IMG/VR virus record: IMGVR_UViG_3300005336_000013
Span: 1 to 45,907 of that record
DNA from: a virus
DNA: 45,907 bases
Direction: 5' to 3' (one strand)
The notes under the pieces were generated by a model that was not told where the DNA came from, searched no databases, and saw only the letters and a program-made list of their open reading frames with translations. Position numbers and translations under genes: made by a program. Below are positions 14,702-35,823 of this stretch, one piece after another. Every line of letters begins with the position of its first letter. The stretch's first letter is position 1.

Positions 14702-16669
14702 CTAGGCGGCTTCGCCTGCCTGTTGTGCGGGGACTACCCCGCCTGTCCCGCCTCCGTTGGCCGGGTTACTGCGGCCCTTGGGGCCAGGTGGAGCGGCGCC
14801 ATTCCCATTGCCGGACGGCTTGATCGTGTTCGCGAGCCCGAGCGACTGCATGCGAGCGACGATCTCCTCGGGATCCTTGAGCATGAGATTCTCCAGGCCT
14901 TTGACCTGGAAGCCCTCGTCGCCCCAGCGCCGGATGAACTCGTTCCAATCCGTGCTGGCCATAGTGAAGGGGTTGGAGGCCAGCATGGTCGCCATGTCCC
15001 GGAACTGATTGGAAATCTGGCTGCGGGTGAGCATAGAACGCGCGCCCACGAAGGTGATATCCGAGACGGCGTCAATGTCGAAGTAGGACACCTCGGTAGT
15101 CTCGGACTCCCCCACCCGGCGGAATACCTTGGACTCGTCATCCAGGTTGCAGTAGTACAAGTCGTTGATCAGCCGGCCCTGGACCGGAAGCTCGTCGCGC
15201 TCGATGAGCACCGCCAGCTGGTCGGTGTTCTGCAGGGCCGCCTGCGTGACCGTGTTGGTCTCGGTCGCCGTGGTATCGCCCTGCTGCATGATTCCCTGGA
15301 CCGGGTCTCGGGCATTCATGGCGTTGCGCATCGTCTGCGACATCAGCCCCAAGGCCTGCACGGCAATCCCCAGCCCGGCGTAGTCCTTGGCAAGCGGGAT
15401 AAGCTGGCTCACATCGGCGCTTTGGGACGTGAACACCTCTCTGGGGCGGCGCGTCTCAAGCGTCCTGGCAAAGTCAGGCCCCCAGTCTCCCGAAACGACG
15501 TAGTTCTGATAGACCGATTCGATGAGCGCCTGGACCGTCAGGATGAGCTGGGTGTCGCTCACGTCCTGCAGGTACCTCACGATGGTCAGGGGTGACAGGC
15601 CGTAGATGCCCCTCCCTGTGGGGAGGATGGTGAAGACTCCCCCCTGGATCTGGCCGTTGCGCTGTGGCGATTGAATCGCCTGGATGCAGATCCCGTCGAT
15701 CATCTTGAGGACGACGCTTCCGCGCGAGTCGATGTCGCCGATCTTGTCTGCGACCTCCTTCGGGATGGTTCCCTCGAACATCCAGCCGCCATAGTACCCA
15801 TAGGCAGCAATGTCCTTGGTGTCTTCCTCGACCAGGTTATCCGTCAGCAGCTTCGGCGGATCGCTGCGGGAGTGGCTGGTGACGATTCGGCCGGAGGGCG
15901 GGCTCCTAAGGACCTGGGCAATACCCTCGCTGTCCCAGTTCTCATCGCCCTGAAGGCCCTGCAGCTCCTCGTCCCTCATCTGGAACAGTTTGCACTTCCA
16001 GTTGAGTTGGTCGAAACGATTCGCTGCTGGGTCGAACCATGTCTTGAACAGGTCGTCCGTCTCGATCACCGGGTCATCGAATACCGGGGCCATGACATTC
16101 TGCAGGATCGTCATGATGCCGCCGGTCTGCGGGTTGCGGACGAACTCGCCGGGAGTGAATGGGTCCGGCACTGGGAGCCTCCGGGGGACCAACCGGACCT
16201 CGTTCTTCCAGCGCGCCGAATAGGACCCCAGCCCAAAGATCAGGCTGTCCCCCAGGCATTCAAAGTTGGTCCGGAAGTTCCCAGGACGCTCCAGGCCGTA
16301 CATGACGAGCCGACTGACCCGCTTGGCCTTCTCGATATCCTCGTCTCCCACTGGATCGGCCTGAACGTAGTCCCGCGTCCCGAACAGGCCGGCCAGCAGG
16401 AGGGCACGAAGAGTGTTGACTCCCTGGTGAGATTCCGGGGTCTTCAGGAAGTTGATGGGAGACATCTCGAAGCGATTGGCGGTGCCGGAAGCCAGGGGAT
16501 ACTGCTTGCTATTCTGGCCGGTTCCATAGGTGCTCTCGACCCGGTAATTGCCCCAGTTCTCGTACCAGCCGGGCTCGAGCTCCTCTCGGACGGAGTTGGC
16601 CTGCTCAATGCAGTCGTCGATGAAGTCGCAGACGGCGGTGTCTCGTGGGCGATACCCGTAGTTAGCCAA
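14702..16669 (-). CDS. Portal protein
   Basis: 655-aa ORF upstream of the scaffold and capsid genes. Size and position are typical of a portal. Gly/Pro-rich, disordered-looking C-terminal tail. Confidence 0.7.
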   Translation of the reverse strand: MANYGYRPRDTAVCDFIDDCIEQANSVREELEPGWYENWGNYRVESTYGTGQNSKQYPLASGTANRFEMSPINFLKTPESHQGVNTLRALLLAGLFGTRDYVQADPVGDEDIEKAKRVSRLVMYGLERPGNFRTNFECLGDSLIFGLGSYSARWKNEVRLVPRRLPVPDPFTPGEFVRNPQTGGIMTILQNVMAPVFDDPVIETDDLFKTWFDPAANRFDQLNWKCKLFQMRDEELQGLQGDENWDSEGIAQVLRSPPSGRIVTSHSRSDPPKLLTDNLVEEDTKDIAAYGYYGGWMFEGTIPKEVADKIGDIDSRGSVVLKMIDGICIQAIQSPQRNGQIQGGVFTILPTGRGIYGLSPLTIVRYLQDVSDTQLILTVQALIESVYQNYVVSGDWGPDFARTLETRRPREVFTSQSADVSQLIPLAKDYAGLGIAVQALGLMSQTMRNAMNARDPVQGIMQQGDTTATETNTVTQAALQNTDQLAVLIERDELPVQGRLINDLYYCNLDDESKVFRRVGESETTEVSYFDIDAVSDITFVGARSMLTRSQISNQFRDMATMLASNPFTMASTDWNEFIRRWGDEGFQVKGLENLMLKDPEEIVARMQSLGLANTIKPSGNGNGAAPPGPKGRSNPANGGGTGGVVPAQQAGEAA

Positions 16670-17501
16670 TCGAGATCCTCTGGGAATCGGTCGTCTGCTT
16701 GCCGGCGAGCTCCATGGCCTTGCGGGCGCGGTAGTACGTCTCGACCTGGCGCAGCGCCAGGGTCTTCATGTGGTCGAACCAGACCTGCGGATGAACGGCC
16801 AGGACGAATGCGGCGCGGTTGCATTCCACGCTGAAGTTGACGTCCTCGCCGCCTCGGACCTTCCGGGACTCTTCGTGGGTGAAATAGAAGGGGGCATCGC
16901 CAACGCCATGCGGTCGGGGTGCGAAGACACGACGCCTGATGGCGAGTGCCCCCGTGCCAACAATCGGCACTCGGTAGGGCTGCTGGACCTCATCTCCCGG
17001 GATGGGCAGGTTGTAGCAGTGATGCTTGTCGTCCACGCCGTAGTTGTTCACCCGGAGCATGGCCTCCGGGTCCATGTTCCCCACCCAGACCGGAGTGAGG
17101 GCACTCACGACGTCGGCATCCTTCACGGTGCACAACTGCCAGAAGTTCTCGGGGACGACCTGGTCGTCATCGATCATCACCAGCCAGTCGCAGTCGGACT
17201 CTTCGAGAAAGGTTTTGACGATGCAGTTCCGGGCGTAATCGATCCCTCGCTTGCCGACCTCCATGTGGATCGTGAACCGGAATGGGCACTCCGGGGTTGC
17301 CGATGAGGCCATGGCACGCCCGAACAGCATGGCGATGGTGAAATTGACCTGACCGCTCTCGGTGGGGACGGCCAGGAAGATCCCGGGCTTGCGGTCTCCG
17401 TGGAGGGATTCCCTACGGGAACGGCGTTCGGCAATGTTGACGATGGGTGCTGGAGCTGTCGCTGAGAACCCTCGGGTTCTTTGATGCCGTACCTGCGCCA
17501 A
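16662..17501 (-). CDS. GT-A fold glycosyltransferase-like protein
   Basis: 279 aa. IFLAVPTESGQV..., then ARNCIVKTFLEESDCDWLVMIDDDQVVPENF, which reads as a DxD-type nucleotide-sugar-binding signature. TTG start at 17501. Overlaps the portal start by 8 nt. Confidence 0.55.
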   Translation of the reverse strand: MAQVRHQRTRGFSATAPAPIVNIAERRSRRESLHGDRKPGIFLAVPTESGQVNFTIAMLFGRAMASSATPECPFRFTIHMEVGKRGIDYARNCIVKTFLEESDCDWLVMIDDDQVVPENFWQLCTVKDADVVSALTPVWVGNMDPEAMLRVNNYGVDDKHHCYNLPIPGDEVQQPYRVPIVGTGALAIRRRVFAPRPHGVGDAPFYFTHEESRKVRGGEDVNFSVECNRAAFVLAVHPQVWFDHMKTLALRQVETYYRARKAMELAGKQTTDSQRISIG

Positions 17502-19462: not shown

Positions 19463-20047
19463 TTAGGCGTCCGCTGGCCTGTCTGCATGAATGGTTCGTG
19501 AGTGCCACTCCAAATACCGGATCGCCGCTAAAAGCACTTCTCTGCTGTCCTTGCACATACCAAGAATGGCGTTGCACTTGGTGCAGAGCAGTCCCCTGAC
19601 GGCACCGGTGAGATGATCATGGTCAAGACAGAACGATCTATTGGTCCCAGGAGAATCCGAGCGGCAAATCGCACAGCGCCGATCCTGCGCCTCCAGCATC
19701 GCCTGATAGGTGTCCTCGTCTATCCCGAGATAGGCCTTTCGTTTCCAGGCTACCGTTGTGGCACTTCTACATCGTTTGCACGTCGGCTTGACGTAGTTGG
19801 TGCTCTTCTCCAAGAATCCAGAGATCGGCTTGGTCTCGCCACATCGCTTGCACTTCAGGGATTTCAGTTTGAGCCTTTTGGCGTTGGCTAGGCTGTTCAC
19901 ATATCCGGTAGTCCTGGGAGCCGCTCCTGCCATCAACTCCGCACATCGCGAGCATCCCTTGATCCTATGTTTCCACACCGGCGGGTGATTATGTCCGCTC
20001 AGGTTGCCGAGCTCGTCAACGCCCTGGAAGCCCTTCCGCTTGCTCAT
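19463..20047 (-). CDS. Endonuclease VII family (HNH-type) nuclease
   Basis: CAICRSDSPGTNRSFCLDHDHLTGAVRGLLCTKCNAILGMCKDS matches the recombination endonuclease VII signature. Extra CxxC pairs upstream. Confidence 0.8.
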   Translation of the reverse strand: MSKRKGFQGVDELGNLSGHNHPPVWKHRIKGCSRCAELMAGAAPRTTGYVNSLANAKRLKLKSLKCKRCGETKPISGFLEKSTNYVKPTCKRCRSATTVAWKRKAYLGIDEDTYQAMLEAQDRRCAICRSDSPGTNRSFCLDHDHLTGAVRGLLCTKCNAILGMCKDSREVLLAAIRYLEWHSRTIHADRPADA

Positions 20048-20058
20048 TGGACCCTCGG

Positions 20059-21831
20059 CTAATGTACGAGTATTGCGGGCAGACCCGTATACCTCGTCGC
20101 AAACGGGATCGGCTCTCGATGTCGAACTTCCTCAACCACCGGAACGGCAATCGGCACCCAGCGGCTCAGGATCTCGTCAGCATGGGCCTGGCCCATCATG
20201 TCGAGCGTGTCTCGCTTGATGCTGGCCGGGTATTCGTTCACGGTGGTTTTCAGCACGTTCAGATGCAAGGCCGGGATGCTCGTCAGGTAGTACCAGTGGC
20301 CCATTTTTGCTTGGGCACCCACCAGGCTGATTCGGTCGTTCTTGGCCTTCTTGTTCCAGGCCTTCACATCGATGAAGCGCGGCATCTGAGTCGGCCTGGC
20401 GTCCCGAGGAGTGGACTTCCAGATCCGCTTCATCAGGCCGACGATCCCCTTGTCAGCCGGGGATTCGCACGAGTAGAAGTGGGTGTGCCAGATGCGCATC
20501 ATGCGCTGCATCTCATCGGCTCCCATGTCGGATTCCATCTCGTTGCTGACGCACAGGTCGAGAAGGATGAAATCGATCTCGCCAGCGATGCTGTAGGAGT
20601 CGATAGTCCCGATGACGGCGTCCGAGCCCTCCTGGTGGTTGTCGTCCCCCTTCCAGGCCGGGTCGCAGTAAACCGCCCGGAATTTGGGCAGATTCCCGTA
20701 GCGCTTGGCGAATTCAGCTGGCGTTAGCGGCTGGAAGAACTCCCATTGCATCGCCTGCTCGCCCGTGAGCGTCGGGTCGAGCTGGTACTGCAGATACCAG
20801 AACCGGTCGGTCCCGCGGCGCTTCATCTCGTTCGCGCGCTCCTTCGCCAGAGCTTCCACGGACAGCCTGGGTATGGTCGGGAAGTTCGGCTTATTGTCGT
20901 CGGTAAGGGCCGGCGTCTTGACGATGAAGTATCGCGGCCTCCCGTCTTCGTGCTTGTCCTCGAGCATGGGCTTGTAGAGCGACTGGATGTGGTAGGGGGT
21001 CCCGGCGGAAACCTCCCGGGACCAGGGAGGAGCGTTCAACTGCCGGAGTTGGTCGTACCGGTCCTTCAGTTCTTCCCGGACCGTTACAGAGTCCCGCGAG
21101 TCTTCCGCCTCCCAGTCGTCCAGGAGTTTGTAGTTGAACCCGGCGCCGGCCTTGCGGCTGCCCGCGGCCTCGGCCGTCATGTTCTTCTGGTCGCTCATGA
21201 ACTCCAGGTCACGGCACGGCCAGTCCCACTGCTCCTTCTCGCCCCACTCCGAGGGCGGGATCGTGAAGCGCGCTGGCTTCCCGGAGAGCGTCAGGCAGCC
21301 CTCTCCGAAGTGCTGCCGAATGTACCGGTTGTGGCGGTTCATGTTCTTGATGGATTCGAGGGCCCCCTTCGCGCGACGCTCCAGGTTGTGGGAGTAGAGG
21401 ACAAGAATGTCCAGATCGTCAACGATCTTGTGGCGCTTGGGGGCCCAGTCCGCGAACATTTTCAGGTGGAACGACTTCAGGGCACGCCGTGGCCATTCGT
21501 TGTGCATCCCGTCATAGGAATCGAGCTCTCCGAGCGCGAGCTTCAGGTAGGCCGCGCAGAGCTCGTCCCGGTGCCGCGGAGGGTGTAGGAGGGCCCGGTA
21601 GACTGGCCGCTTGTACCAGGTTTGCAGCGCGTAATGCCAGAAAGGGTTGTGATCCAGCCCGATTACGGCCACCGGGCGGCCCGTGACGAGCTGAAACACG
21701 ATCGCGGGGTCCCCTTCCGAGTACCGGGCTACCAATTCCGCCCCGGTGAGGATGGAAAGGTCGCGTTCGATGGCGATATTGGCCTGAAGGAGTATCTCGG
21801 GGTCGACGTCGGAGCGTTTTGGGGCGCTCAA
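20059..21831 (-). CDS. terL: Terminase large subunit
   Basis: 590 aa. Walker-A-like WPRRALKS, Walker-B-like YKLLDDWEAED, and a C-terminal nuclease-like AVYCDPAWKGDDNHQEGSDAVIGTI. TTG start overlaps the upstream stop (TTGA). Confidence 0.7.
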   Translation of the reverse strand: MSAPKRSDVDPEILLQANIAIERDLSILTGAELVARYSEGDPAIVFQLVTGRPVAVIGLDHNPFWHYALQTWYKRPVYRALLHPPRHRDELCAAYLKLALGELDSYDGMHNEWPRRALKSFHLKMFADWAPKRHKIVDDLDILVLYSHNLERRAKGALESIKNMNRHNRYIRQHFGEGCLTLSGKPARFTIPPSEWGEKEQWDWPCRDLEFMSDQKNMTAEAAGSRKAGAGFNYKLLDDWEAEDSRDSVTVREELKDRYDQLRQLNAPPWSREVSAGTPYHIQSLYKPMLEDKHEDGRPRYFIVKTPALTDDNKPNFPTIPRLSVEALAKERANEMKRRGTDRFWYLQYQLDPTLTGEQAMQWEFFQPLTPAEFAKRYGNLPKFRAVYCDPAWKGDDNHQEGSDAVIGTIDSYSIAGEIDFILLDLCVSNEMESDMGADEMQRMMRIWHTHFYSCESPADKGIVGLMKRIWKSTPRDARPTQMPRFIDVKAWNKKAKNDRISLVGAQAKMGHWYYLTSIPALHLNVLKTTVNEYPASIKRDTLDMMGQAHADEILSRWVPIAVPVVEEVRHREPIPFATRYTGLPAILVH

Positions 21832-22625: not shown

Positions 22626-22907
22626 ATGACCTCCGAACGGACACGCCTGACGCGGATCTATCGGCAATTCTCTGGAGCCAAGCTGAAGGCCGCCCGAGAG
22701 GCCATTGGGGTCTCGCGCAACCGCCTCGCGCCGTGGGTTGGCTGCACGGTGATGTCGATCTACAACTGGGAAACCGGGCGCAAAGTGCCGAGTGCCCAGT
22801 ATCTGGACGCACTGGCAGCCAATCTGCGGGTCAAGGTCGACGAGTTCTATGACGTGCAGGAAGGAATGGTAAGGACCGAGGATGCCAAGAGTCCAAAGCG
22901 GCGCTGA
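22626..22907 (+). CDS. XRE-family helix-turn-helix transcriptional regulator
   Basis: 93 aa. LKAAREAIGVSRNRLAPWVGCTVMSIYNWETGRKVPSAQYLDALAANL fits the XRE HTH pattern. Confidence 0.8.
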   Translation: MTSERTRLTRIYRQFSGAKLKAAREAIGVSRNRLAPWVGCTVMSIYNWETGRKVPSAQYLDALAANLRVKVDEFYDVQEGMVRTEDAKSPKRR

Positions 22908-23580
22908 AGTCACGATCGTGACTCTGGTTTACAGAAATTTAAAATGGCTAGATTTCTGCATGGAAGGCGTTGACTCGACCAGACAGAAGACGAAGTACCG
23001 ATGGCTGGTGGTGAGCAATGACGGCACCCCAGAGGTCCGCAGTGACCAGAGAATCACGGTAGATTTCATGAATGCCGATCCGAAGGAGTGGTACATCCCG
23101 AGAGTCTACAGAGCCTGGAACGAAGGGTTCCGACTGAGCCCAACGCCTCTCGTTGTGAATCTCAGCAACGATATGTACGGCTCCGACTATTGGCTCGATG
23201 AGCTGATGGATCTGAAGCGCAAGGATCCGAAGACGATTCCGTGCGGACTGCTCATCGAAAGTGGCCGCATTCCATCGGCGATGCCGGAATACGCACAAGA
23301 CTTTGGGATCACTCCGGGGACATTCAACAAGGCTGGCTTTCTGGCAGCGGCTGCGAGGTTGCGGCGGCGCGGCGAATACGAACCTGGCAGATTATTTGGT
23401 CCGACTCTTTTTGAGCGCCAGGAATGGTACGACCTCGGCATGTACCCCGAGGGCAACCCCGGCGGAGTCCCAGGCGACCGCTATCTCTATGAGAGATACC
23501 AGGAAGCTGGGTTCAGGTGGAGTACTTGCAGGGGGGCGGTTCTCTACCATACTCAGCTTGGCGAGCAAAGCGATTTATGA
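22882..23580 (+). CDS. Glycosyltransferase family 2-like (GT-A)
   Basis: VTIVTLVYRNLKWLDFCMEGV...WLVVSNDGTPEV...AWNEGFRLSPTPLVVNLSNDMYGSDYWLDELM follows the GT2 N-terminal layout. Confidence 0.55.
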   Translation: MPRVQSGAEVTIVTLVYRNLKWLDFCMEGVDSTRQKTKYRWLVVSNDGTPEVRSDQRITVDFMNADPKEWYIPRVYRAWNEGFRLSPTPLVVNLSNDMYGSDYWLDELMDLKRKDPKTIPCGLLIESGRIPSAMPEYAQDFGITPGTFNKAGFLAAAARLRRRGEYEPGRLFGPTLFERQEWYDLGMYPEGNPGGVPGDRYLYERYQEAGFRWSTCRGAVLYHTQLGEQSDL

Positions 23581-23616
23581 AAATCCTTACCCCTTAACCC
23601 GCCAAAGGAGGTGGCA

Positions 23617-24150
23617 ATGGGAAAGCTGACAATCACTGAGGCGCTCGCCGAGATCAAGACGATCAACGCGCGTATCGCCAAGAAGAGAACCGCGGTGATG
23701 CTGTACTTCGCGCGAGACGGAAGGCTGCGCGATCCGCTGGAGACCGATGGCGGCTCGATCGAGTTCGTGAAGCGAGAGCGCCAGGCCATCTCGGATCTCG
23801 AGGACCGCTTGGTCGCCATCCGCTGCGCGATCCAGGCATCCAATCTCGCGACCACGACCACGGTTGGAGAGATCTCGAAGTCCATCGCCGGCTGGCTGAA
23901 TTGGCGCCGGGAGATCTCCAAGGGCCGGCAGCAGTTCCTGGGAACGATGACGCAGCGCCTTACCGTCGTGCGCCAGGAATGTCTCAAGCAGGGCTGGTCC
24001 ATCACTGACAAGGACCCGCAGCCAGGAGAAGTCATCGTCTCGGTCAACGAGAAGCAGCTCGCCCAGGAGACTGAGGCGCTCGAGCATCTCCTTGGAGACC
24101 TGGACGGGAAATTGTCACTGCTCAACGCTACAACGACCATCGAGCTGTAA
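23617..24150 (+). CDS. Helical protein resembling the DIP1984 family (tentative)
   Basis: ATG 23617 lies 5 nt after AAGGAGG. N-terminal KLTITEALAEIKTINARIAKK and C-terminal LDGKLSLLNATTTIEL resemble, from memory, the ends of DIP1984-type proteins. Confidence 0.35.
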   Translation: MGKLTITEALAEIKTINARIAKKRTAVMLYFARDGRLRDPLETDGGSIEFVKRERQAISDLEDRLVAIRCAIQASNLATTTTVGEISKSIAGWLNWRREISKGRQQFLGTMTQRLTVVRQECLKQGWSITDKDPQPGEVIVSVNEKQLAQETEALEHLLGDLDGKLSLLNATTTIEL

Positions 24151-24155
24151 AGAAT

Positions 24156-24443
24156 ATGCCTTCGGTTGCGAAGCGGGAAAAGCGGCTGAATATGGGCTTG
24201 GCCTCTAAAGCCATCCCCCCTATCCCTTATGAAGGGATGCCAATGGAGCATGCCGGTGACAACCGGCGCAATGCAAAGCTCAAGGCTGACGAGGGAAAGC
24301 TGCTTATTTCACGAATGACCGATGAAAGTCTAAAGTTGCGCCAAATCCTGCGCTCGCGTGACGCACGGCGAGATCCGTGCGGCGTCCTTTCAGTTGCGGA
24401 CGCTCCCGGCGTGCAGGCTGCAATTTGGAGGCATATCCAATGA
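24156..24443 (+). CDS. Hypothetical protein
   Basis: 95-aa ORF with an ATGA overlap to the methyltransferase gene. Confidence 0.45.
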   Translation: MPSVAKREKRLNMGLASKAIPPIPYEGMPMEHAGDNRRNAKLKADEGKLLISRMTDESLKLRQILRSRDARRDPCGVLSVADAPGVQAAIWRHIQ

Positions 24444-25045
24444 GTCGAGAAGACGATTCCGTCGTCCATGCCCTGGCTGAACTATGTCAGCTCTATCAGA
24501 TAAAAACTCTGTTTCAGGTCGGGGCCTGTGACGGGTACGAGGCCTACGCGGTGGCTAGCAAGACGCAGTGCCGCGTCGTCCTCTTCGAGCCGGATCCTCT
24601 GTGCGCTGCGATGGCGCCCAGCCTCGACTGGCATGCGGTCATGGTCGGTGCTACCGACTGCGTGACAACCTTCTATGCCCATGGCGCGCGTGGGCTGTCG
24701 AGTCCGATCAAGCGCGGAGACGGAGAAGAGACTGAGATGCAACTCCGGCAGACGCGGCTGGACACCTTCTGCGAGAAGCATGAGATCTGGCCGGACGCGC
24801 TACTCGTGGACACTGAAGGGACCTCTCTGGATGTGCTTGAGGGATGCGGCGATCGGATTCTGAATAGTCTCAAGGTAGCGTACCTTGAATGCCAGACCTC
24901 GGCGTTTCGCCCTGGTATGCGATTGGTCGGAGAAGTGGACGCGCTGCTGGTTGCGCATGGCATGACTTCGCATCAGGGACCGCCTTCCTATGGAGCTGGC
25001 GATGCGCAGGGCAATTACACCTTCGTTCGGATGGCTGGGAAATGA
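24440..25045 (+). CDS. FkbM-family SAM-dependent methyltransferase
   Basis: 201 aa. LFQVGACDGYEAYAVA...VVLFEPDP...RLDTFCEK...ALLVDTEGTSLDVLEGC follows the FkbM (Methyltransf_21) pattern. Confidence 0.7.
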   Translation: MSREDDSVVHALAELCQLYQIKTLFQVGACDGYEAYAVASKTQCRVVLFEPDPLCAAMAPSLDWHAVMVGATDCVTTFYAHGARGLSSPIKRGDGEETEMQLRQTRLDTFCEKHEIWPDALLVDTEGTSLDVLEGCGDRILNSLKVAYLECQTSAFRPGMRLVGEVDALLVAHGMTSHQGPPSYGAGDAQGNYTFVRMAGK

Positions 25046-25530
25046 CTGCTTTTCGTCCCCTTGCCGAAAGGTTCTGGGAGAAGGTTGAGAAAACCGACTC
25101 CTGCTGGAATTGGACGGGCGGGACATGCAGGGGATACGGAGCCATTGGGCTGGGCGGAAGGGGGGCCTCGCAAGTCGGAGCGCACCGCGTCTCGTGGGAA
25201 TTGCACTTCGGACCAGTCCCGCCAGGGCTGGAGGTCTGCCACCATTGCGACAATAGGCGATGCGTGAATCCATCCCATCTCTTTGTCGGCACAAGGCAGG
25301 AGAACGCGCTTGATGCGGTCAGGAAGGGACGGCACAAGTGTAACTTTCCAAAACCGCCGACAGGGGAGAGAGCCTATCGTGCAAAGCTGACCCTGGAGCA
25401 GGTGAGAGAAATTCGCGCCCTCAGGGAGCGCGGTGCTTCAGGTCTTGCGATAGCCAAGATGTTTCCGGTAGTTACATGGCAAACGATATACAGCGTACTC
25501 TCTGGCAGATCGTGGGTGTGCGATAAATGA
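25042..25530 (+). CDS. HNH endonuclease (HNH_3-like) with C-terminal HTH
   Basis: CWNWTGGTCRGYGAI...AHRVSWELHFGPVPPGLEVCHHCDNRRCVNPSHLFVGTRQEN. ATGA overlaps at both ends. Confidence 0.8.
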   Translation: MTAFRPLAERFWEKVEKTDSCWNWTGGTCRGYGAIGLGGRGASQVGAHRVSWELHFGPVPPGLEVCHHCDNRRCVNPSHLFVGTRQENALDAVRKGRHKCNFPKPPTGERAYRAKLTLEQVREIRALRERGASGLAIAKMFPVVTWQTIYSVLSGRSWVCDK

Positions 25531-26444
25531 AGGTAGTTGTCGTCAACGATGCGATCACGCAAATTCCAGGAACCAGAACCTTCTGGTCAGACTTGGTGGA
25601 ATGGTTCGGCGCCGAGTTTGTTTGCGCTCCATTTCAGGATCTTCCAGCGCTAGCGTCCTCGATCGAATGCGATGTGATGATTCGCAACGGCTCATACTGG
25701 CCGGCCATCACGAGCAACGCCAAGCAGGTATCTCTGATTCAGGACATATTCGACGATTCACCTCTCAGGGCCATGCAGCGCGAGGCGATCGCTTCCTCAG
25801 TCCCGATTTATAACTCTTCTTTCACTGCAGAGAAATGCGGCGATGCCGGAGGCAAAGTAATTCCTCTGCCGGTGGATTTTAGAAGTTTTGAACCTCAGAA
25901 CGCGATGGGATGCCAGCAGGCTCTTGGCCTGCCCGATGGTTGCATTTGCTGGGTAGGAGCCACCCAGGGGCCTGCTGGCCATGTGAAGGGCTACGACATC
26001 TTTCTGAAGATCGTTCGCATGAATCCGGATCTCCACTTCGTTGGTGTCTTCAAGGACGCCATTCCTGATTCGTTCCCTCCGAACCTGCGATGCTTCCTGA
26101 GGCTCACTCACGAGGAGCTGGTGAAGGTGATTGGTGCCTGCCGCGTCGGCCTGTGTACCTCGAGAATGGAGAGTCAGCACCTGGCGGGAATCGAGATGGG
26201 GGCATGTGGATTGAAGCTCATTGTCCCCGACACGGGGGTCTATTGGAAGCGCGAGGATTTACCGATCTGGAGAGTCACGGATCCGACTCCGCAGAATTAT
26301 GCCGCTTCTATCCGCGGAGTATTGCCCGAGTCATCGTTCAATGAGCATGTGCGCGGACTGTGGCAGAAAGAATTCGACCGCCCGGTGATTCGGGCGCAAT
26401 GGGAGAAACTGATCGCGGAGGTGGAGAATGATCCCCCTAAATAG
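25527..26444 (+). CDS. GT-B fold glycosyltransferase (GT1/GT4-like)
   Basis: 305 aa. WVGATQGPAGHVKGYDIFLKIV...LCTSRMESQHLAGIEMGACGLKLIVPDTG resembles the GT4 C-terminal E..g....E.ma.G motif region. Confidence 0.6.
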   Translation: MKVVVVNDAITQIPGTRTFWSDLVEWFGAEFVCAPFQDLPALASSIECDVMIRNGSYWPAITSNAKQVSLIQDIFDDSPLRAMQREAIASSVPIYNSSFTAEKCGDAGGKVIPLPVDFRSFEPQNAMGCQQALGLPDGCICWVGATQGPAGHVKGYDIFLKIVRMNPDLHFVGVFKDAIPDSFPPNLRCFLRLTHEELVKVIGACRVGLCTSRMESQHLAGIEMGACGLKLIVPDTGVYWKREDLPIWRVTDPTPQNYAASIRGVLPESSFNEHVRGLWQKEFDRPVIRAQWEKLIAEVENDPPK

Positions 26445-26700
26445 GGAGGTGAACACCGTCACTGAGGAGGAATGGATCACCGCCACCTCAGTCGAGCAGC
26501 GTGCGTTCAGACAGTATTGGCATAGCAAGGGCTACGGCTGGTTCAGCTGCCGTCGGTGCGGCTACCCCACGAGCCATGGAACCGTGGGATGCGATGCCTG
26601 CCGACAGATCGAGAGTCCATGGGAGAAGCGCCAAGCGGAAGAGGCCAAGGCCAAGCGGCAATGTCCGCAATGCAAGGGACGCGGAGAAGTTGAGAAATGA
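26428..26700 (+). CDS. Small Zn-ribbon protein
   Basis: 90 aa with CRRCGYP...GCDAC and CPQCKGRGE (CxxCxGxG). GGAGG upstream of the start. ATGA overlap with the next gene. Confidence 0.5.
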   Translation: MIPLNREVNTVTEEEWITATSVEQRAFRQYWHSKGYGWFSCRRCGYPTSHGTVGCDACRQIESPWEKRQAEEAKAKRQCPQCKGRGEVEK

Positions 26701-27443
26701 TCTGGTCGATTCTCATCGCAGGAATTCCGGAGAGGTACCATGTCGTCCAGCCGCTCCTACTTTCGCTTCTCGAGCATCAGTCAGTGGCGCGTATGCCCGA
26801 CGTTGAGCTCCTTTACCTACTTGATAATCGACGACGTTCTGTCGGAGCGAAGCGCAACGCCCTCCTTGGAGCGGCTACTGGCGAGTATGTCTCGTTCGTT
26901 GACGACGATGATCAAGTCGCGAACGACTACGTCCAGAAAATCTACCGGGAGATCTGCAAGACGAGGAAACTAGCAGTGCCTGGGGATTGCCCGACCTGCG
27001 GAGGAACGGGATGCAAGACGTGCGGTGGCGGACATCCGGAATGTCAGCACAACTGCCCGGGGTGCGATGGAACAGGAGACACTCCGGGTCCATTCAGGGC
27101 CGACGTGATCTGCTTCGGTCAACGCTGCACACTTCAGCCCGCCGGCGTCATCCACGAATGCACCTACTCGCTGGCGCACTGGAAGGATCGGGCACCGGAG
27201 GCACGGCGACAACTCGCGCCCTCCGACAAGCCGAACATGCTGAACTGGAGCGGGCCCCCCTCGCACACCATGGCCTGGCGGCGCGAGACTGTCCAGGGGG
27301 TCCGCTTCGAAGAAAAGCAATTTGGTGAGGACGTGAGCTGGGTGGACAAGTGCTGTGAGCGCGCGCAGCGAGAGATTCAGATTCCAGGGCCTCCAATCTA
27401 TTTTTACAACTTCAACGAGATGACGAGCGCGACAAGGGGGTAG
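26697..27443 (+). CDS. Glycosyltransferase family 2-like with an inserted CxxCxGxG zinc-finger segment
   Basis: MIWSILIAGIPER...GAKRNALLGAATGEYVSFVDDDDQVANDYV gives the GT-A DxD region. It is followed by CPTCGGTGCKTCGGGHPECQHNCPGCDGTG. Confidence 0.6.
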   Translation: MIWSILIAGIPERYHVVQPLLLSLLEHQSVARMPDVELLYLLDNRRRSVGAKRNALLGAATGEYVSFVDDDDQVANDYVQKIYREICKTRKLAVPGDCPTCGGTGCKTCGGGHPECQHNCPGCDGTGDTPGPFRADVICFGQRCTLQPAGVIHECTYSLAHWKDRAPEARRQLAPSDKPNMLNWSGPPSHTMAWRRETVQGVRFEEKQFGEDVSWVDKCCERAQREIQIPGPPIYFYNFNEMTSATRG

Positions 27444-27445
27444 CC

Positions 27446-27679
27446 ATGGCAGACAAAGTCTCAGGACGAAGAGTTCGGGGAGCCAAGCTGGGAATGACCG
27501 TGCAGCCCAAGAAGCCGGGACCATTCGACAAGCTCGGCAAGATCATGGAGCAGGGAGCCGAGGAAGAGAACAAACTCGAGCTGCGTGGTCAGCGTCTGGC
27601 GGGTCGCGCAGCAGCCAAAGCACAGGGGAAGATCCCGAAGGCCAAGCCTGATTTCAGAAAGCGCGGAGTGAGGGCGTAG
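27446..27679 (+). CDS. Small basic protein
   Basis: 77-aa Lys/Arg/Gly-rich ORF that fits exactly between its neighbours. Confidence 0.4.
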   Translation: MADKVSGRRVRGAKLGMTVQPKKPGPFDKLGKIMEQGAEEENKLELRGQRLAGRAAAKAQGKIPKAKPDFRKRGVRA

Positions 27680-28798
27680 ATGTCGCAGGCCGGGGTTTAC
27701 TCAGAACTCAAAATGCCGTGGCTCTTCGCTCGGAAGCCAGAGTTACCCGAGGCCCCCCGTCAGGTCCACTGGATTCTTTCGGATCTCTGCAACCAGGACT
27801 GTTCGTTCTGTTCTTATCGTGTCTCGGGCAATCCCTCTAACGAGCTCTTTTCCGAGGGGGCGCGGCTCTCGGCCTATGGCCACGACAATCCTGTCCGCTG
27901 GGTCGATACCGATCGCGCGCTGCGGCTCGTGGACGAGATGGCATCCATTGGAGTGCGGGCTATTCAAGCGACCGGAGGAGGTGAACCCAGTTCGCACCCC
28001 GATCATGAGTTGATCTTTGAGAAAGTCGTGGATTCCGGGATGAAGTTGGCGCTTGTGTCGAATGGTTTCCGCTGGCGTGATCGACTCTTCCCTCTCATTC
28101 CGAGAATGGAATGGCTGCGCGTGAGCGTGGATGCCGGGACTGCGGCAACCTACTCCAAGATTCGACGCACACCCATGTCTGCCTTCACAAAGGTCCTGAC
28201 CAATATCGCCCACGCCAGAGAGATGATCTGGAACGCCTCATCTAAGACTACGCTTGGAGTCGGGTTCACTGTCACCCCTGACAACTGGATGGAAATCGTA
28301 GAAGGGTGCCAGATTGCCAAGGAATCAGGTGCCGACAACATTCGCATCAGTGCCATGTTTGGACCCGAAGACGAGCGCCCGTTTCTTCCGATCTATGATT
28401 CCATCAGGGCGCTCATCCTGAAAGCAAAGGGTCTGTACGAAGGCGACGGATTCACCGTCTACGATAACTTCGGATCGCGCCTTGACGATTTGAAACAGCA
28501 CAATCCGGACTACAACTTTTGCCCCTACCAGTTTTTTACAACCTACCTTGGGGGAAATCTCCAGATTTTTAGGTGCTGCGTGCTCTCGTATTCTCGCAAA
28601 GGGATGGTGGCTGGAGGAGATCTCACCCACAAGCGTTTTGATGACTTCTGGCGCTCAGAGGAGCGAAAGCGCGACCTGGAGTCTCTAGATCCACGAGGCT
28701 GCCCAAAATGCATGTTCAACGGCAAGAACAGGGCAATGCTCTACGTGATGGGCAACACGGAGTCCGACACAGCGCCACGTCACATGGATTTCCCCTGA
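27680..28798 (+). CDS. Radical SAM enzyme with a Cys-containing C-terminal (twitch/SPASM-like) region
   Basis: 372 aa. SDLCNQDCSFCSYR gives the CxxxCxxC motif and IQATGGGEPSSHPD the GGE SAM-binding motif. C-terminal Cys residues lie in FCPY, RCCV and GCPKC. Confidence 0.8.
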   Translation: MSQAGVYSELKMPWLFARKPELPEAPRQVHWILSDLCNQDCSFCSYRVSGNPSNELFSEGARLSAYGHDNPVRWVDTDRALRLVDEMASIGVRAIQATGGGEPSSHPDHELIFEKVVDSGMKLALVSNGFRWRDRLFPLIPRMEWLRVSVDAGTAATYSKIRRTPMSAFTKVLTNIAHAREMIWNASSKTTLGVGFTVTPDNWMEIVEGCQIAKESGADNIRISAMFGPEDERPFLPIYDSIRALILKAKGLYEGDGFTVYDNFGSRLDDLKQHNPDYNFCPYQFFTTYLGGNLQIFRCCVLSYSRKGMVAGGDLTHKRFDDFWRSEERKRDLESLDPRGCPKCMFNGKNRAMLYVMGNTESDTAPRHMDFP

Positions 28799-29433
28799 TG
28801 AAGTTCTGCAAGAAGTGTTCAACCGATAAGGCAGAATCAGAGTTCTATTTCGATTCTTGCAAGCAGCGCCTGTATTCCTACTGCAAGGCCTGCCATCTCT
28901 CCTTGACATCCGATTGGGCTGGTCGCAACAAGGCTGTAATAGCCGAGAGTGCGAGAAAGAGATATCGCACCAATCCAGAGCGCTTCAAGGAGCAATCGGC
29001 AGAATGGCGAAAGTCGCATAGGGCGATCTTCCTGAAGAAGAATCGCTATCAGTGGTACAAGCGATGGCATCATTGCGTTGAGGGTCTCGGAGGAAAATGC
29101 GCCTGTTGCGGCGAATCCAGATTAACGATGCTGGAGATCGACCATGTCGGCGGAAAGGGGAACATTCATCGAAAAGCAACTGGCGGATCAGTGGGCACCT
29201 ACAATGAAATCATCGCACTAGGCTTTCCGAGGGACAGGTTCCAGGTCCTATGCTGCAACTGCAACAAGAGCAAGATGCGAAATGCCGGGTTCTGCGAGCA
29301 CGAGACCGGGCCGGTGGCCAAGGACGGAGCGCTACTGTCCAGGGAATCAGAGATTCAGCTTCCCCTGATAGTCCCCGAGTCCCGCTTCGATCGTTTCAAG
29401 CGCCGTTTCGACGCCTCTATCGGCATCGCATGA
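28798..29433 (+). CDS. HNH endonuclease with N-terminal Zn-ribbon (paralog of 13965..14495)
   Basis: LGGKCACCGESRLTMLEIDHVGGKGNIHRK...VLCCNCNKSKMRNAGFCEHE. TGATG overlap with the radical SAM gene stop. Confidence 0.85.
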   Translation: MKFCKKCSTDKAESEFYFDSCKQRLYSYCKACHLSLTSDWAGRNKAVIAESARKRYRTNPERFKEQSAEWRKSHRAIFLKKNRYQWYKRWHHCVEGLGGKCACCGESRLTMLEIDHVGGKGNIHRKATGGSVGTYNEIIALGFPRDRFQVLCCNCNKSKMRNAGFCEHETGPVAKDGALLSRESEIQLPLIVPESRFDRFKRRFDASIGIA

Positions 29434-29660
29434 CCTACCACGTCCGTCTGATCCTGCACGAGGCTGACAGCACTCCCTGCTGCGATGTGGATAATCCCAT
29501 GGAGACCGAGGTGTCGCTGGTCTGGCTCTATAAGCCAGGGATGGCAATCATGATGGACAACGGTCCGTTCCCTTGCCGGCATGGCAAGCCGGCTGTGATA
29601 CGAACCTGCACGCTGGAGGTGCCGACGAATGAGCAAGTGCGACCAGCACCGCAGTTTTGA
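29430..29660 (+). CDS. Hypothetical small protein
   Basis: 76 aa from ATG 29430, which forms an ATGA overlap with the HNH stop. Confidence 0.4.
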   Translation: MTYHVRLILHEADSTPCCDVDNPMETEVSLVWLYKPGMAIMMDNGPFPCRHGKPAVIRTCTLEVPTNEQVRPAPQF

Positions 29661-29859
29661 TGGGCGGGACCACCACGAGTGGGGAAGCTGGGAATCGAAG
29701 GAGGAGGGCGGGTTCATCATCTACACCCGGGGCGCCCGGGTGGGCCATCTCGAGCCGTTCTCCAGACGCTGGCAGGAGCGCAAGTGCGCCGAATGTGGCT
29801 TCGTGGACGCTTCAGCGATCCTGGGGAGCGTCGACATCCTTGGGCTGGTGCCACGATGA
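29629..29859 (+). CDS. Hypothetical small protein
   Basis: 76 aa. GGAGG lies 9 nt upstream of the start. ATGA overlap with the next gene. Contains one CAEC pair. Confidence 0.45.
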   Translation: MSKCDQHRSFDGRDHHEWGSWESKEEGGFIIYTRGARVGHLEPFSRRWQERKCAECGFVDASAILGSVDILGLVPR

Positions 29860-30701
29860 AACTGACCGCGTGCCTGACGATCAACAACCGAACGCCTGAA
29901 GTCTGCGGGAAGGTCGCTGACTCTCTCCTGCTGCCCGGGAACCTGCCAGACGAGCTCGTGGTCGTGCTGGACCGCTGTACCCCGGAGGTGAAAGACGGGG
30001 CCCATGCCGCCTATGACCAGCTGGATTGTCCCGTGCGCTGGATCACCATCCCCGGGGAGCCTGGCTGGCGCTCGCCGGTGAAGGCATGGAACCTGGCCTT
30101 TCTGGCAGCCACCGGTGACGTGCTCTACTGCTTCTCGAGCGAGACGGTGCAGGAAGCTGGGAACCTCATCAGGGTGAGACAGCAAATGCAGGACGAACAC
30201 TACGGGTACTTCGATGGCTGGGCTGGCGATGGCCCGCGTCCGGAGTTTGGTAGTCACTGCGAGGTCTCCGTCTACCACGGCTCCGTCTCCTGCTCCTGCG
30301 GTCCTTACGGCCAAGAGGTCAACTGGAACGGCTCAGCGCCCGGAAACCTGTTCTGTGATGCCGCTCACCCGCGGCCCCTGGGCTTCATCTGGGCCGCTCC
30401 CCGCTCTGCCGTGAGCGCCATAGGCGGGTACGATGAGGAGTTCGCGAAGGGCTTCTGGTACGACGACAATGACTTCTTCTATCGCCTCTGGAAGCAGGGC
30501 CTGGACTTCGTGTTCGACGACTCCATCTCGGGGACCCACCTGCACCATGCCAGGCAGACACTCGAGACTGAGGAAGGGCGTTGGGGAATCGCCAAGAATC
30601 AGCAGACCATGCTGGCCAAGTATGGCTGCGTGAATCCGCTGGAGACTGAGATGATCAGGGAGGAACGCAAACCCGGCAGGACTATCTGGAGGCACCCGTG
30701 A
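29856..30701 (+). CDS. Glycosyltransferase family 2-like (GT-A)
   Basis: 281 aa. LTACLTINNRTPEV...ELVVVLDRCTPEV...AWNLAFLAATGDVLYCFSSE...GGYDEEFAKGFWYDDNDFFYRLWKQGLDF follows the GT2 layout. Confidence 0.6.
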   Translation: MKLTACLTINNRTPEVCGKVADSLLLPGNLPDELVVVLDRCTPEVKDGAHAAYDQLDCPVRWITIPGEPGWRSPVKAWNLAFLAATGDVLYCFSSETVQEAGNLIRVRQQMQDEHYGYFDGWAGDGPRPEFGSHCEVSVYHGSVSCSCGPYGQEVNWNGSAPGNLFCDAAHPRPLGFIWAAPRSAVSAIGGYDEEFAKGFWYDDNDFFYRLWKQGLDFVFDDSISGTHLHHARQTLETEEGRWGIAKNQQTMLAKYGCVNPLETEMIREERKPGRTIWRHP

Positions 30702-33104: not shown

Positions 33105-33587
33105 GTGTCTGGTCGTCCAATGATAGATCCTAAGAAGGCTTTGGATATGCGTCTTGCTGGCTGTTCGAACATGGTGATAGCTGAGGCCTTTGAAGTGAGC
33201 AAGGCAGCGGTGACGCATCACTTCAAGCGCAAGGTGCGGAGGCGGAACAAGGTTCGAAGACCGCGTAAATGTCTGTGTGGGTGTGGGGTTTTGACGCAGC
33301 GGCGAAAGTACGCATCGCGGGAATGCTATTTCCGGTATGTGTGCAAGAGGCCGTATGTGTCGTGGAGGCAGGGTCAGAGGATAGCGCGAGTACTGGTGAG
33401 TCAGCATTTCGAGTTGAGGCCTGGAAACGTGGTTCACCATGTAGACGGCGACAACCGGAACAACGCCTTGGGGAATCTGTGGGTTTTCGAGTGTCACGCG
33501 GATCACATGAGCCACCATCGCGGGGGATTACGAAAGCCGATATGGAAAGGCTCGGACTGTCAAGTCTTTGTCGCTGATTCTCCTTGA
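33105..33587 (+). CDS. HNH endonuclease with N-terminal HTH
   Basis: GNVVHHVDGDNRNNALGNLWVFECHADHMSHH gives the HNH core. N-terminal LAGCSNMVIAEAFEVSKAAVTHHFKR is HTH-like. Starts at GTG 33105 or ATG 33120. Confidence 0.8.
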   Translation: MSGRPMIDPKKALDMRLAGCSNMVIAEAFEVSKAAVTHHFKRKVRRRNKVRRPRKCLCGCGVLTQRRKYASRECYFRYVCKRPYVSWRQGQRIARVLVSQHFELRPGNVVHHVDGDNRNNALGNLWVFECHADHMSHHRGGLRKPIWKGSDCQVFVADSP

Positions 33588-34894: not shown

Positions 34895-35271
34895 GCTGAC
34901 AGCGGAGCTTGCGCCTTCTGGCCAGTCTCGAAATCCTGAAGCGTGATCTCCTGAATTCTGGGCTCCCAATGCTTCGCCTTCCCCCGAGGGCCACGCTTGG
35001 ACCATGAGATCACCTGAATGCGATTCCCGCAAGAGAGCCAAAGGCGAGCAATCGACAACTCGAGAATTTTAGACACTCGCGCCGAGTGATTGGTCCCGCT
35101 GGTACACTGGACAGCAAGCGTGGCACATCCCGAGCGCAGCGCAAGGACATCGACAAACCCGAAGAGATCTTGGCGAATTCTGCAATGAGGATTCCAATGC
35201 TCTGTGATTCCAACGGCCCATCCATCCGACCGCAACCGCGCCAAGGTTCTTTGAGTCGGGCTGGATGGCAT
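34876..35271 (-). CDS. PD-(D/E)xK-type nuclease, possible Holliday-junction resolvase
   Basis: 131 aa. TLARLRSDGWAVGITEHW....RQDLFGFVDVLALRSGCATLAVQCTSG resembles the archaeal-Hjc-like E...D...(E/Q)xK layout. Confidence 0.4.
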   Translation of the reverse strand: MPSSPTQRTLARLRSDGWAVGITEHWNPHCRIRQDLFGFVDVLALRSGCATLAVQCTSGTNHSARVSKILELSIARLWLSCGNRIQVISWSKRGPRGKAKHWEPRIQEITLQDFETGQKAQAPLSAYVGSC

Positions 35272-35352
35272 CCTAGAATGCCCCGCGCTGTCGCTGGGCT
35301 GCCTTGTAATGCATTTGCAATTCTACTATCATGGCCTCGCCTTGGGAGGCCT

Positions 35353-35823
35353 ATGCCAAAGATAGGCAGGACTCATGAAGTAATCTTTGGAAATGTCCTG
35401 GCGGTAAGGACTTATTGCGATGCCTGTCGGAGGCCTGCTCTGATAGTCAAGGGCCTGTTGGCTTGCTGCGGCAAATCCGTAGATCGTGAGCCAACCGGAC
35501 AGAAGCGCGAGTGTGAGCCATGCCAGAAACGACAGCGCCCCCCATTGAAAGCGAGGCTTCGCCAGCTCGCAGAGCAAAACAATCGCTGCGCCTATTGCGA
35601 TTTGGAATTCGGATCGATGATTTCCAGGAGGGAGATATCGCTCGTCCTGGTGGTCAACTGGGACCATTGCGTCCCCTATGCCTATGGCCAGAACAACTCC
35701 ACCACGAATTTTGTTGCCGCTTGCCAAGTCTGCAATAGTATCAAGCGCGACATGACCTTCCCGAGCACCGATGAGGCCAGGGCCTATGTCATCCAAAAAA
35801 GAATTGCCAAGGGCTATTTGTGA
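35353..35823 (+). CDS. HNH endonuclease, antisense to the surrounding operon
   Basis: CAYCDLEFG...NWDHCVPYAYGQNNSTTNFVAACQVCNSIKRD gives the HNH core. ATG 35353 follows GGAGG. The longer track ORF (35086) would overlap the resolvase-like gene on the other strand. Confidence 0.75.
   Translation: MPKIGRTHEVIFGNVLAVRTYCDACRRPALIVKGLLACCGKSVDREPTGQKRECEPCQKRQRPPLKARLRQLAEQNNRCAYCDLEFGSMISRREISLVLVVNWDHCVPYAYGQNNSTTNFVAACQVCNSIKRDMTFPSTDEARAYVIQKRIAKGYL

Follow-up and report, generated by a model that had tools for sequence, protein, structure and literature searches.

Introduction

The glycosylation of phage virions or phage DNA is a recently recognised means of evading recognition by the host and by the immune system, and the pathways laid out in the accessible phage-glycosylation literature consist of glycosyltransferases (GTs) and methyltransferases only. 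The virus record IMGVR_UViG_3300005336_000013, a stretch of 45,907 nucleotides (about 46 kb and essentially one whole contig) that is called the window here, carries at positions 27680-28798 a gene for a radical S-adenosylmethionine (SAM) enzyme lodged among glycosyltransferase genes. This raises the question as to what a radical SAM enzyme contributes to a phage glycosylation cassette. The answer favoured here is that of a sugar-tailoring radical enzyme coupled to a glycosyltransferase, a role that on balance appears probable; much less confidence attaches to any single type of chemistry. No relevant paper on radical SAM enzymes in phage or viral glycosylation was found in the literature searchable here. 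A preliminary description of the locus, drawn from the DNA letters, had called such a role rarely described for phages, which holds for that literature, but the gene family itself turns out to be common in phage metagenomes.

A radical SAM core and a twitch-type auxiliary domain

By its sequence, the 372-residue product is a radical SAM enzyme for which SAM cleavage is predicted: it matches the Pfam family Radical_SAM (PF04055) at E=1.8e-17, with 64.5 bits against a cut-off of 29.5. The CxxxCxxC and GGGEP motifs on which the preliminary description was built are both plain in the translation, the Pfam score placing the assignment far beyond chance; the cysteine motif reads LSDL-C37-NQD-C41-SF-C44, and T98, G99, G100, G101 and E102 are invariant both in the homolog alignment and in distant relatives. 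The distant set comprises 11 proteins at 21-31% identity, of archaeal, Streptomyces, Elusimicrobia and other origin, and CX3CX2C is kept in all of them. The AlphaFold2 (AF2) model (pLDDT 93, pTM 0.91) has alternating strands and helices over residues 28-262, and its best-ranking Foldseek matches are radical SAM enzymes without exception.

Five further cysteines lie towards the C-terminus, in the motifs NFCPYQ (C281), FRCCVL (C299 and C300) and RGCPKCMF (C341 and C344). Like C37, C41 and C44, they are conserved in 99-100% of 112 full-length homologs; C210, the sole cysteine outside the motifs, is conserved in 6% of the same set. C281, C299, C341 and C344 are also retained in all 11 distant relatives, and C300 in nine of them. 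Poor conservation of the C-terminal cysteines, the outcome that the preliminary description had named as speaking against it, was tested for and did not occur, all five being invariant in the 112 homologs. In the AF2 model, C281 is found shortly before a β-hairpin (strands 287-290 and 295-297), the C299/C300 pair follows shortly after it, and helices at 320-335 precede C341-x2-C344. These elements of sequence and structure are those of a twitch domain, in which one cysteine stands ahead of a hairpin, one behind it and two past a helix, and whose auxiliary cluster is fully ligated in BtrN (PMC6231123). BtrN belongs to a subclass that also includes SkfB and MoaA; the window enzyme shares its C-terminal cysteine layout, one auxiliary cluster is predicted, and four invariant cysteines would permit its full ligation, C300 being an extra residue beside the predicted ligand C299. 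The C-x17-C ... C-x2-C spacing of the window enzyme is one that we take to equal BtrN's. The two differ in the fifth conserved cysteine, C300, and in overall structure, BtrN being a weak Foldseek match (rank 37, TM-score 0.37/0.54).

A full SPASM domain is a different matter. The SPASM profile PF13186 scores below its Pfam threshold (14.4 bits against 21.5, residues 296-344), and the seven-cysteine SPASM motif, CX9-15GX4C-gap-CX2CX5CX3C-gap-C, is absent, the protein having five C-terminal cysteines only. As five rather than seven cysteines point to one auxiliary cluster, the C-terminal domain is, on the predicted structure, a twitch domain with one predicted auxiliary cluster and not a full SPASM domain; of the twitch/SPASM layout that had been seen in the extra cysteines, the twitch part stood and the SPASM part fell.

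Nearest characterised relatives

No curated family threshold is reached by the protein in a scan of NCBIfam. N_Twi_rSAM (NF033640) gives 62.7 bits against a cut-off of 170 and covers residues 24-230 only, leaving the C-terminal domain uncovered; a tungsten-cofactor maturase model gives 49.6 bits against 380, viperin (NF038283) 45.9 against 180, BlsE (TIGR04466) 33 against 400, MoaA (TIGR02666 and TIGR02668) about 30-33 against 284-325 and DesII (TIGR04426) 16.6 against 450, and the QueE and anaerobic ribonucleotide reductase (RNR) activase models give no match. Placing the enzyme in one of the known radical SAM families with housekeeping or defence functions (QueE, anaerobic RNR activase, MoaA or viperin) could draw on the sub-threshold viperin and MoaA scores and on the viperin-like structures in the Foldseek list, but the scores fall 4- to 10-fold short of the curated cut-offs, and QueC, QueD, FolE and NrdD found no match among the open reading frames (ORFs) scanned in the window. 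We know of no viperin, QueE or activase with an invariant four-cysteine C-terminal cluster site. By the NCBIfam scores and the invariant C-terminal cysteines, such an assignment is effectively refuted, and its probability is close to nil. The preliminary description was thus right to set the enzyme apart from viperin-like enzymes and to note that QueC, QueD and FolE are missing, and the housekeeping assignment that it had named as a refuting outcome (for example QueE or RNR activase) was looked for and not found.

The solved structure that matches best by sequence is that of BlsE (E=2e-7), the alignment spanning the barrel core only (residues 83-227), and a profile of the family ranks BlsE (1.5e-11), TigE (2.7e-9) and DesII (1.6e-7) ahead of SkfB, PqqE and the viperins. 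Foldseek against the PDB places DesII first (E=6e-15, TM 0.63) and BlsE next (TM 0.60/0.67), followed at lower rank by SkfB, SuiB, PqqE, viperin-like enzymes and anSME; the structural comparison with DesII and other sugar-modifying enzymes that had been suggested at the outset therefore came out in their favour. A fold search of BFVD returned no near viral structure, the best TM being 0.58/0.67. DesII (dTDP-4-amino-4,6-dideoxy-D-glucose ammonia-lyase; PDB 8HZV, 8HZY) is a radical SAM enzyme with a nucleotide-sugar substrate and, like the window enzyme, combines a partial TIM barrel with a C-terminal extension; it differs in being about 100 residues longer, in its identity of 13-15% to the window enzyme and in that it is not known to have an auxiliary cluster, whereas the window family has an invariant four- or five-cysteine site. 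BlsE (cytosylglucuronate decarboxylase of blasticidin S; PDB 7VOB) is of similar size, has a nucleobase-linked sugar as its substrate (PMC3715490) and is the best match by sequence and profile, but it lies in a Streptomyces antibiotic gene cluster instead of a phage GT cassette. As judged from sequence and predicted structure, the nearest characterised relatives are thus enzymes whose substrates are sugars carried by a nucleotide or a nucleobase, and the likeness is remote.

Linkage to glycosyltransferases

The genomic surroundings of the family were compared over 156 loci, of which 80 come from IMG/VR (out of at least 431 stretches), 68 from GTDB genomes and 8 from exact-protein look-ups. Neighbouring genes were clustered for the window together with those 101 fetched loci in which the enzyme shares 35% identity or more with the window's, 102 loci in all. 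The partner GT encoded downstream of the enzyme in the window (cluster c1, whose representative matches Pfam Glyco_tranf_2_2, GT2 and Glyco_transf_7C) is present in 73 of these 102 loci, and in 66 of the 87 that have at least 900 nucleotides of downstream sequence; it is immediately adjacent to the radical SAM gene in 54 of 101 loci, downstream in 32 and upstream in 22. Hidden Markov models of the GT-A-like clusters, among which cluster c4 was counted by sequence appearance alone, find one or more such genes within 7 kb in 83 of 102 loci, with a median of two. As an internal control, the density of GT-A-like genes is 2.97 per 10 kb within 1.5 kb of the enzyme and 0.17 per 10 kb at a distance of 7.5-10 kb, a 17-fold difference. 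The GT2-type gene directly upstream in the window (cluster c3) occurs in 19 loci, at a median of 3 nucleotides from the radical SAM gene. The enzyme is thus coupled to a GT2 inside glycosyltransferase/methyltransferase cassettes, in an association that looks obligate, and the co-occurrence with flanking GT genes, a check proposed in the preliminary description, holds over about 100 viral and cellular loci.

Other sugar-related genes accompany the enzyme: methyltransferases in 38 of 102 loci, TylF-type (L004) and FkbM-type ones among them, a nucleotide-sugar epimerase/dehydratase (cluster c14) in seven loci, and a recurring MptE-like protein (cluster c12). In the cultured bacterium Zavarzinella formosa DSM 19928 (L100), the enzyme is encoded among GT2, GT9 and methyltransferase genes, and in an Omnitrophota metagenome-assembled genome (L092) beside a second radical SAM/SPASM gene and a GT2. 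The two radical SAM genes of the latter, L092:6892-8058 and L092:9725-11071, are 1.7 kb apart with the GT2 after them; one encodes a SPASM-domain protein (PF13186, 1.8e-14) and the other is a member of the present family. A Streptomyces homolog (24% identity) was considered as a possible member of a characterised cluster and set aside, its context (a GFO/IDH/MocA oxidoreductase, a sulfotransferase and a second radical SAM gene) differing from that of the cassettes and being uninformative.

The glycosyltransferases themselves are less readily assigned. Of the cassette GTs none reaches an NCBIfam cut-off, the upstream GT2 having six far-sub-threshold matches and the other GT candidates none. The AF2 model of the partner GT (pLDDT 93) has a generic GT-A fold that Foldseek matches about equally well to chondroitin polymerase, the fucosyltransferase WrtF, RmlT and polypeptide GalNAc-transferases (ppGalNAc-T), and from matches so mixed its acceptor is not identified.

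The cassette in the window

The window bears the phage genes of a major head protein (11551-12654) and a large terminase (20059-21831) as well as an internal-virion-protein-like gene, and related contigs of 45.4-45.7 kb exist. The cassette lies on the plus strand, divergent from the terminase operon (Table 1), and the glycosyltransferase operon reported in the preliminary description is real: the upstream GT2, the GT-B-like GT, the partner GT-A and the FkbM-family methyltransferase all belong to it. In addition to the window gene's own match, the representative of the GT-B-like cluster c2 and the orthologs in L001 and L003 match Glyco_trans_1_4. The nearest relatives (L157, L001 and L005-L007) have one order in common, namely a helix-turn-helix (HTH) gene, c4, an MT24 methyltransferase, a GT-B, a GT2, the radical SAM gene and a second GT2. 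In near relatives the GT2, radical SAM and downstream GT2 genes overlap by 4 nucleotides wherever no homing endonuclease intervenes; in L001 and L002, for instance, the radical SAM and partner-GT genes overlap by 4 nucleotides with no gene between them, and L157 has an HNH gene of its own plus additional small ORFs. From this uninterrupted order it follows that the two HNH genes in the cassette of the window are insertions into a conserved operon. They belong to at least six HNH/EndoVII-type genes in the window, one of which (19463-20047) was assigned by motif alone; two of the six break the cassette relative to L001 and L005, and the genes at 13965-14495 and 28708-29433 form a paralogous pair (34% identity, E=7e-20).

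A further GT-like gene is situated in the head/packaging module. Its orthologs in L001 and L005-L007 are of 280 residues, those of L005-L007 matching Glyco_tranf_2_3 weakly, and it abuts a 655-residue ORF (14702-16669) that, from position and size alone, is a putative portal gene.

The operon also bears on the nature of the substrate. An enzyme acting on a protein or peptide and not on a sugar, be it a virion protein that is later glycosylated or a small precursor peptide, would be in keeping with the presence of SkfB, SuiB, PqqE, anSME and TigE among the top structural or profile matches, and also with the 77-residue ORF directly upstream of the radical SAM gene in the window and a 66-residue ORF in the same place in L002. 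These two ORFs are, however, not homologous to each other, and they are missing from L157, L001 and L005, where the GT2 and radical SAM genes overlap. Moreover, the roughly 30 residues ahead of CX3CX2C leave no room for an N-terminal recognition domain for peptides that are ribosomally synthesised and then modified post-translationally (RiPPs), and what is conserved next to the gene is a glycosyltransferase rather than a gene for a peptide, a protease or a transporter. A protein or peptide substrate is for these reasons considered unlikely. The 77-residue ORF in particular was rejected as a RiPP precursor, given its lack of similarity to the L002 ORF and its absence from the nearest relatives; it is not conserved and possibly not a gene.

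The upstream GT2 of the window has a feature of its own, an insertion of about 34 residues (residues ~95-130) with DnaJ-like CxxCxGxG zinc-finger repeats, CPTCGGTGCKTCGGG...CPGCDGTG, which is not in the L001 ortholog.

Table 1. Features of the radical SAM locus, of the rest of the window and of intein-bearing homologs (positions in the window unless a locus is named)
Feature	Position	Strand	Remarks
Radical SAM enzyme, C-terminal twitch-type auxiliary Fe-S domain	27680-28798	+	372 aa, ATG start; PF04055, AF2, Foldseek, 147 homologs
CX3CX2C motif LSDLCNQDCSFCSYR	27788-27811	+	C37/C41/C44; predicted site of the SAM-cleaving [4Fe-4S] cluster
TGGGEP motif QATGGGEPSSHP	27971-27988	+	Residues 98-103; SAM-binding 'GGE' motif
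Twitch-type auxiliary-cluster region	28520-28711	+	C281, predicted β-hairpin 287-297, C299/C300, helices, C341-x2-C344
XRE-type HTH protein, head of the cassette	22626-22907	+	HTH_31 1.6e-10, HTH_3 (Pfam); HTH at the same place in L001, L157
232-aa conserved protein, cluster c4	22882-23580	+	18 loci, same strand as radical SAM gene; no Pfam/NCBIfam match
FkbM-family SAM methyltransferase	24377-25045	+	Methyltransf_21 7e-9; TIGR01444 46.9 bits against cut-off 37.7
HNH homing endonuclease, cassette insertion	24889-25530	+	HNH_3 2.5e-17 (Pfam); phrog_826 2.5e-33
GT-B-like glycosyltransferase, cluster c2	25527-26444	+	phrog_2170 1.1e-9
90-aa zinc-ribbon ORF	26428-26700	+	C-terminal end CxxC...CPQCKGRG
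GT2 glycosyltransferase, cluster c3, directly upstream	26697-27443	+	PF00535 1.2e-8; phrog_14775 8.7e-21
77-aa basic ORF between GT2 and radical SAM gene	27446-27679	+	No family match
HNH/EndoVII-type endonuclease between radical SAM gene and partner GT	28708-29433	+	Probable start 28798; phrog_2255 HNH 2e-15
Partner glycosyltransferase, GT-A fold, cluster c1	29856-30701	+	Longest ORF from 29679; called gene 281 aa (P0270)
GT-like gene in head/packaging module	16662-17501	-	Weak phrog_34859, phrog_2456 glycosyltransferase matches
HNH/EndoVII-type gene	13965-14495	-	
HNH/EndoVII-type gene	19463-20047	-	
HNH/EndoVII-type gene	33105-33587	+	
HNH/EndoVII-type gene	35086-35823	+	
Intein-bearing homologs	L138:9428-11041; L087:8690-10999; L082:6015-8036		Proteins P0125, P0136, P0082

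Target of the glycan

By analogy, a virion protein is the most likely target of the glycan. In the mycobacteriophages Corndog (cluster O) and Che8, several GTs and an O-methyltransferase are encoded at or in the structural module; in Corndog, the O-methyltransferase and GTs stand between portal and protease, and no radical SAM gene is named there (PMC4351075). The window has a comparable arrangement, with several GTs and a methyltransferase at or in its structural module: the GT-like gene at 16662-17501 abuts the putative portal gene, and the main cassette (22626-30701), with its FkbM-family methyltransferase, abuts the terminase operon. Mycobacteriophage genes of this type have reportedly been linked to virion glycosylation in a later study. 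The cases differ in that virion glycosylation by the window phage, whose host may be a member of the Planctomycetota, is a prediction from its genes. In one group of viral contigs (L026:1656-2594, and likewise L024, L028 and L042), a conserved protein encoded two genes upstream of the enzyme (cluster c21) ends in a long Ser/Pro-rich tail, SPSSSASPSFSPSASQSPSAS..., and a terminase-like gene is nearby; by its sequence and this neighbour the protein looks structural, and its tail would be a plausible substrate of O-glycosylation.

DNA offers itself as another target. Radical SAM enzymes act in phage thymidine hypermodification pathways, and the cassette might hypermodify the phage DNA, with the glycan placed on a modified base and the radical SAM enzyme altering the group added to it. 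Metagenomic phages do have sets of GT-A and GT-B enzymes, related to the GTs of lipopolysaccharide (LPS) and teichoic acid and often encoded near structural genes, which add mono- to tri-saccharides to 5-hydroxymethylcytosine (5hmC); these clusters need both a C5-methyltransferase and a TET-like dioxygenase (5mYOX), and the term 'radical SAM' does not occur in their description (bioRxiv 10.1101/2023.12.21.572611). One neighbour cluster of the present family, c11, is a weak match to a TET-associated glycosyltransferase (E=0.0022, below the cut-off). The window was scanned with Pfam and PHROG over its larger ORFs outside the structural module, and over part of those within it; unlike the hypermodification clusters, its larger non-structural ORFs include neither of the defining enzymes (C5-methyltransferase and TET/5mYOX), nor a pyrimidine hydroxymethylase, a 5-hydroxymethyldeoxyuridine (5-hmdU) kinase or a DNA polymerase. 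The methyltransferases of the cassettes are moreover of the FkbM, MT24 and TylF types, that is, small-molecule or sugar O-methyltransferases, and three to five GTs with several O-methyltransferases suit an oligosaccharide better than a base adduct, all of which makes hypermodification of DNA a distinctly unlikely purpose.

The same enzymatic role could also serve a glycan on the host envelope (LPS, capsule or S-layer), for superinfection exclusion or the masking of receptors. An XRE-type HTH gene stands at the head of the cassette, which diverges from the late structural operon; the partner GT is similar to GTs of polysaccharides and teichoic acids (chondroitin polymerase, WrtF and RmlT), and homologous clusters are found in bacterial genomes. 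Against this, the scans of the window found no integrase, flippase, polymerase (Wzy/Wzx) or GtrA/GtrB-like membrane protein, and an additional GT is encoded inside the head/packaging module; an envelope target is accordingly judged improbable, and the virion remains the favoured one.

Proposed role of the enzyme

In the proposed scheme, reductive cleavage of SAM by the N-terminal CX3CX2C cluster would yield a 5'-deoxyadenosyl radical, and a single auxiliary [4Fe-4S] cluster would sit in the twitch domain, with C281, C299, C341 and C344 as its full set of ligands and C300 alongside. The radical would take a hydrogen atom off a carbon of a sugar, which is most likely a nucleotide sugar that the host supplies or otherwise part of the growing glycan; six arginines that are invariant in the homolog alignment (R47, R73, R147, R162, R222 and R267) would fit a substrate bearing a phosphate or diphosphate. 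Two outcomes are conceivable from this point. The substrate may be oxidised to a keto sugar, with the auxiliary cluster conducting or accepting the electron, a part that has been suggested for it in BtrN and anSME, whose fully ligated auxiliary clusters are thought to oxidise the radical intermediate (PMC6231123). Alternatively, a redox-neutral epimerisation, dehydration or decarboxylation may take place and give an epimer, a deoxy sugar or a decarboxylated sugar. In the twitch epimerase NeoN the hydrogen-atom donor is a cysteine, and C300 is a candidate for the same function here. The partner GT would then transfer the product sugar into a methylated oligosaccharide, placed most likely on a virion protein.

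Several points weigh against a sugar-tailoring role. The likeness to DesII and BlsE is remote (TM 0.57-0.64 at 13-20% identity), the RiPP maturases SkfB, SuiB and PqqE score nearly equal to them, and in this subfamily sequence clustering predicts neither fold nor function (PMC6231123). About one fifth of the loci have no GT within 7 kb at the sensitivity used, and the window has no recognisable gene for nucleotide-sugar synthesis. Nothing in the window identifies the acceptor, and a search of its structural proteins for Ser/Thr-rich tails, as candidate sites of O-glycosylation, gave nothing convincing on the major head protein. The sugar or nucleotide-sugar substrate put forward in the preliminary description is supported: the linkage to GTs and the closeness of DesII and BlsE argue for it, but at a TM of about 0.6 and 13-20% identity the substrate is still suggested by genomic context and distant similarity.

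More tentative than the sugar-tailoring role as such, though conceivable, is a wider proposal in which the radical SAM-GT2 pair forms a self-contained and widespread viral module that makes a sugar not supplied by the host by radical chemistry and builds it into a methylated glycan peculiar to the phage, carried by the virion or, with lower likelihood, by DNA. Viral glycosylation would thereby gain its first radical SAM step, and the CC pair by the auxiliary cluster might take part in a new sugar-tailoring reaction.

Spread of the family and inteins

The radical SAM family is large, mostly viral and common in phage metagenomes. A search of 5.8 billion proteins gave 147 homologs at 39-81% identity, all of them metagenomic and none functionally named; a profile search of 1.84 billion representatives at 50% identity returned 1000 proteins with E<=1e-30 and 8087 with E<=1e-10, and relatives are encoded on at least 431 IMG/VR stretches. 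Among known phages, a tblastn search of 50,697 phage records produced four matches, of at most 28% identity and with no useful annotation. Neither the fold class nor the phage glycosylation cassette as a general idea is new; a conserved radical SAM component of such cassettes has no description in the searchable literature. If a mostly viral radical SAM family is bound to a GT of its own, radical sugar tailoring would join the phage repertoire, and this would point to unusual sugars in phage glycans. For enzymology, it offers a compact twitch enzyme of 370 residues with about 1000 diverse sequence clusters for comparison, and the clear genomic partner GT narrows the search for the substrate. 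The radical SAM-GT cassette is thus a well-supported and experimentally tractable lead, and no surprise in kind.

Inteins interrupt radical SAM homologs at two sites, both at catalytic motifs. The first lies before the second or third cysteine of CX3CX2C, with C...HN|C junctions (L138, L087, L082 and P0136), and the second before T98 of TGGGEP, with S...N|T junctions and LAGLIDADG motifs (P0125 and P0136), P0136 carrying inteins at both. At least 24 of the top 150 representatives of 50%-identity clusters run to 480-1150 residues, and their matches are broken in two or cut short at profile positions ~43/44 or 97/98. Recurrent inteins in catalytic motifs and the homing endonucleases around the gene suggest a strong functional constraint on the enzyme in phages. 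One homolog, P0240, has 1631 residues with a radical SAM match on residues 241-529 only, and may be a fusion with other domains.

Other genes of the window

In the right arm of the genome, 39591-40532 (minus strand) encodes a PDZ-domain protein (PDZ_6, 1.6e-16) and 41671-42186 (minus strand) a phrog_2164 protein with weak MazG-like similarity, neither with a visible link to the radical SAM enzyme. In the structural region, the genes at 2115-2729 and 2729-3370, both on the minus strand, are tandem paralogs with 48% identity over 168 residues (E=1e-41), and the products of both have Gly-rich tails (GFGGGG).

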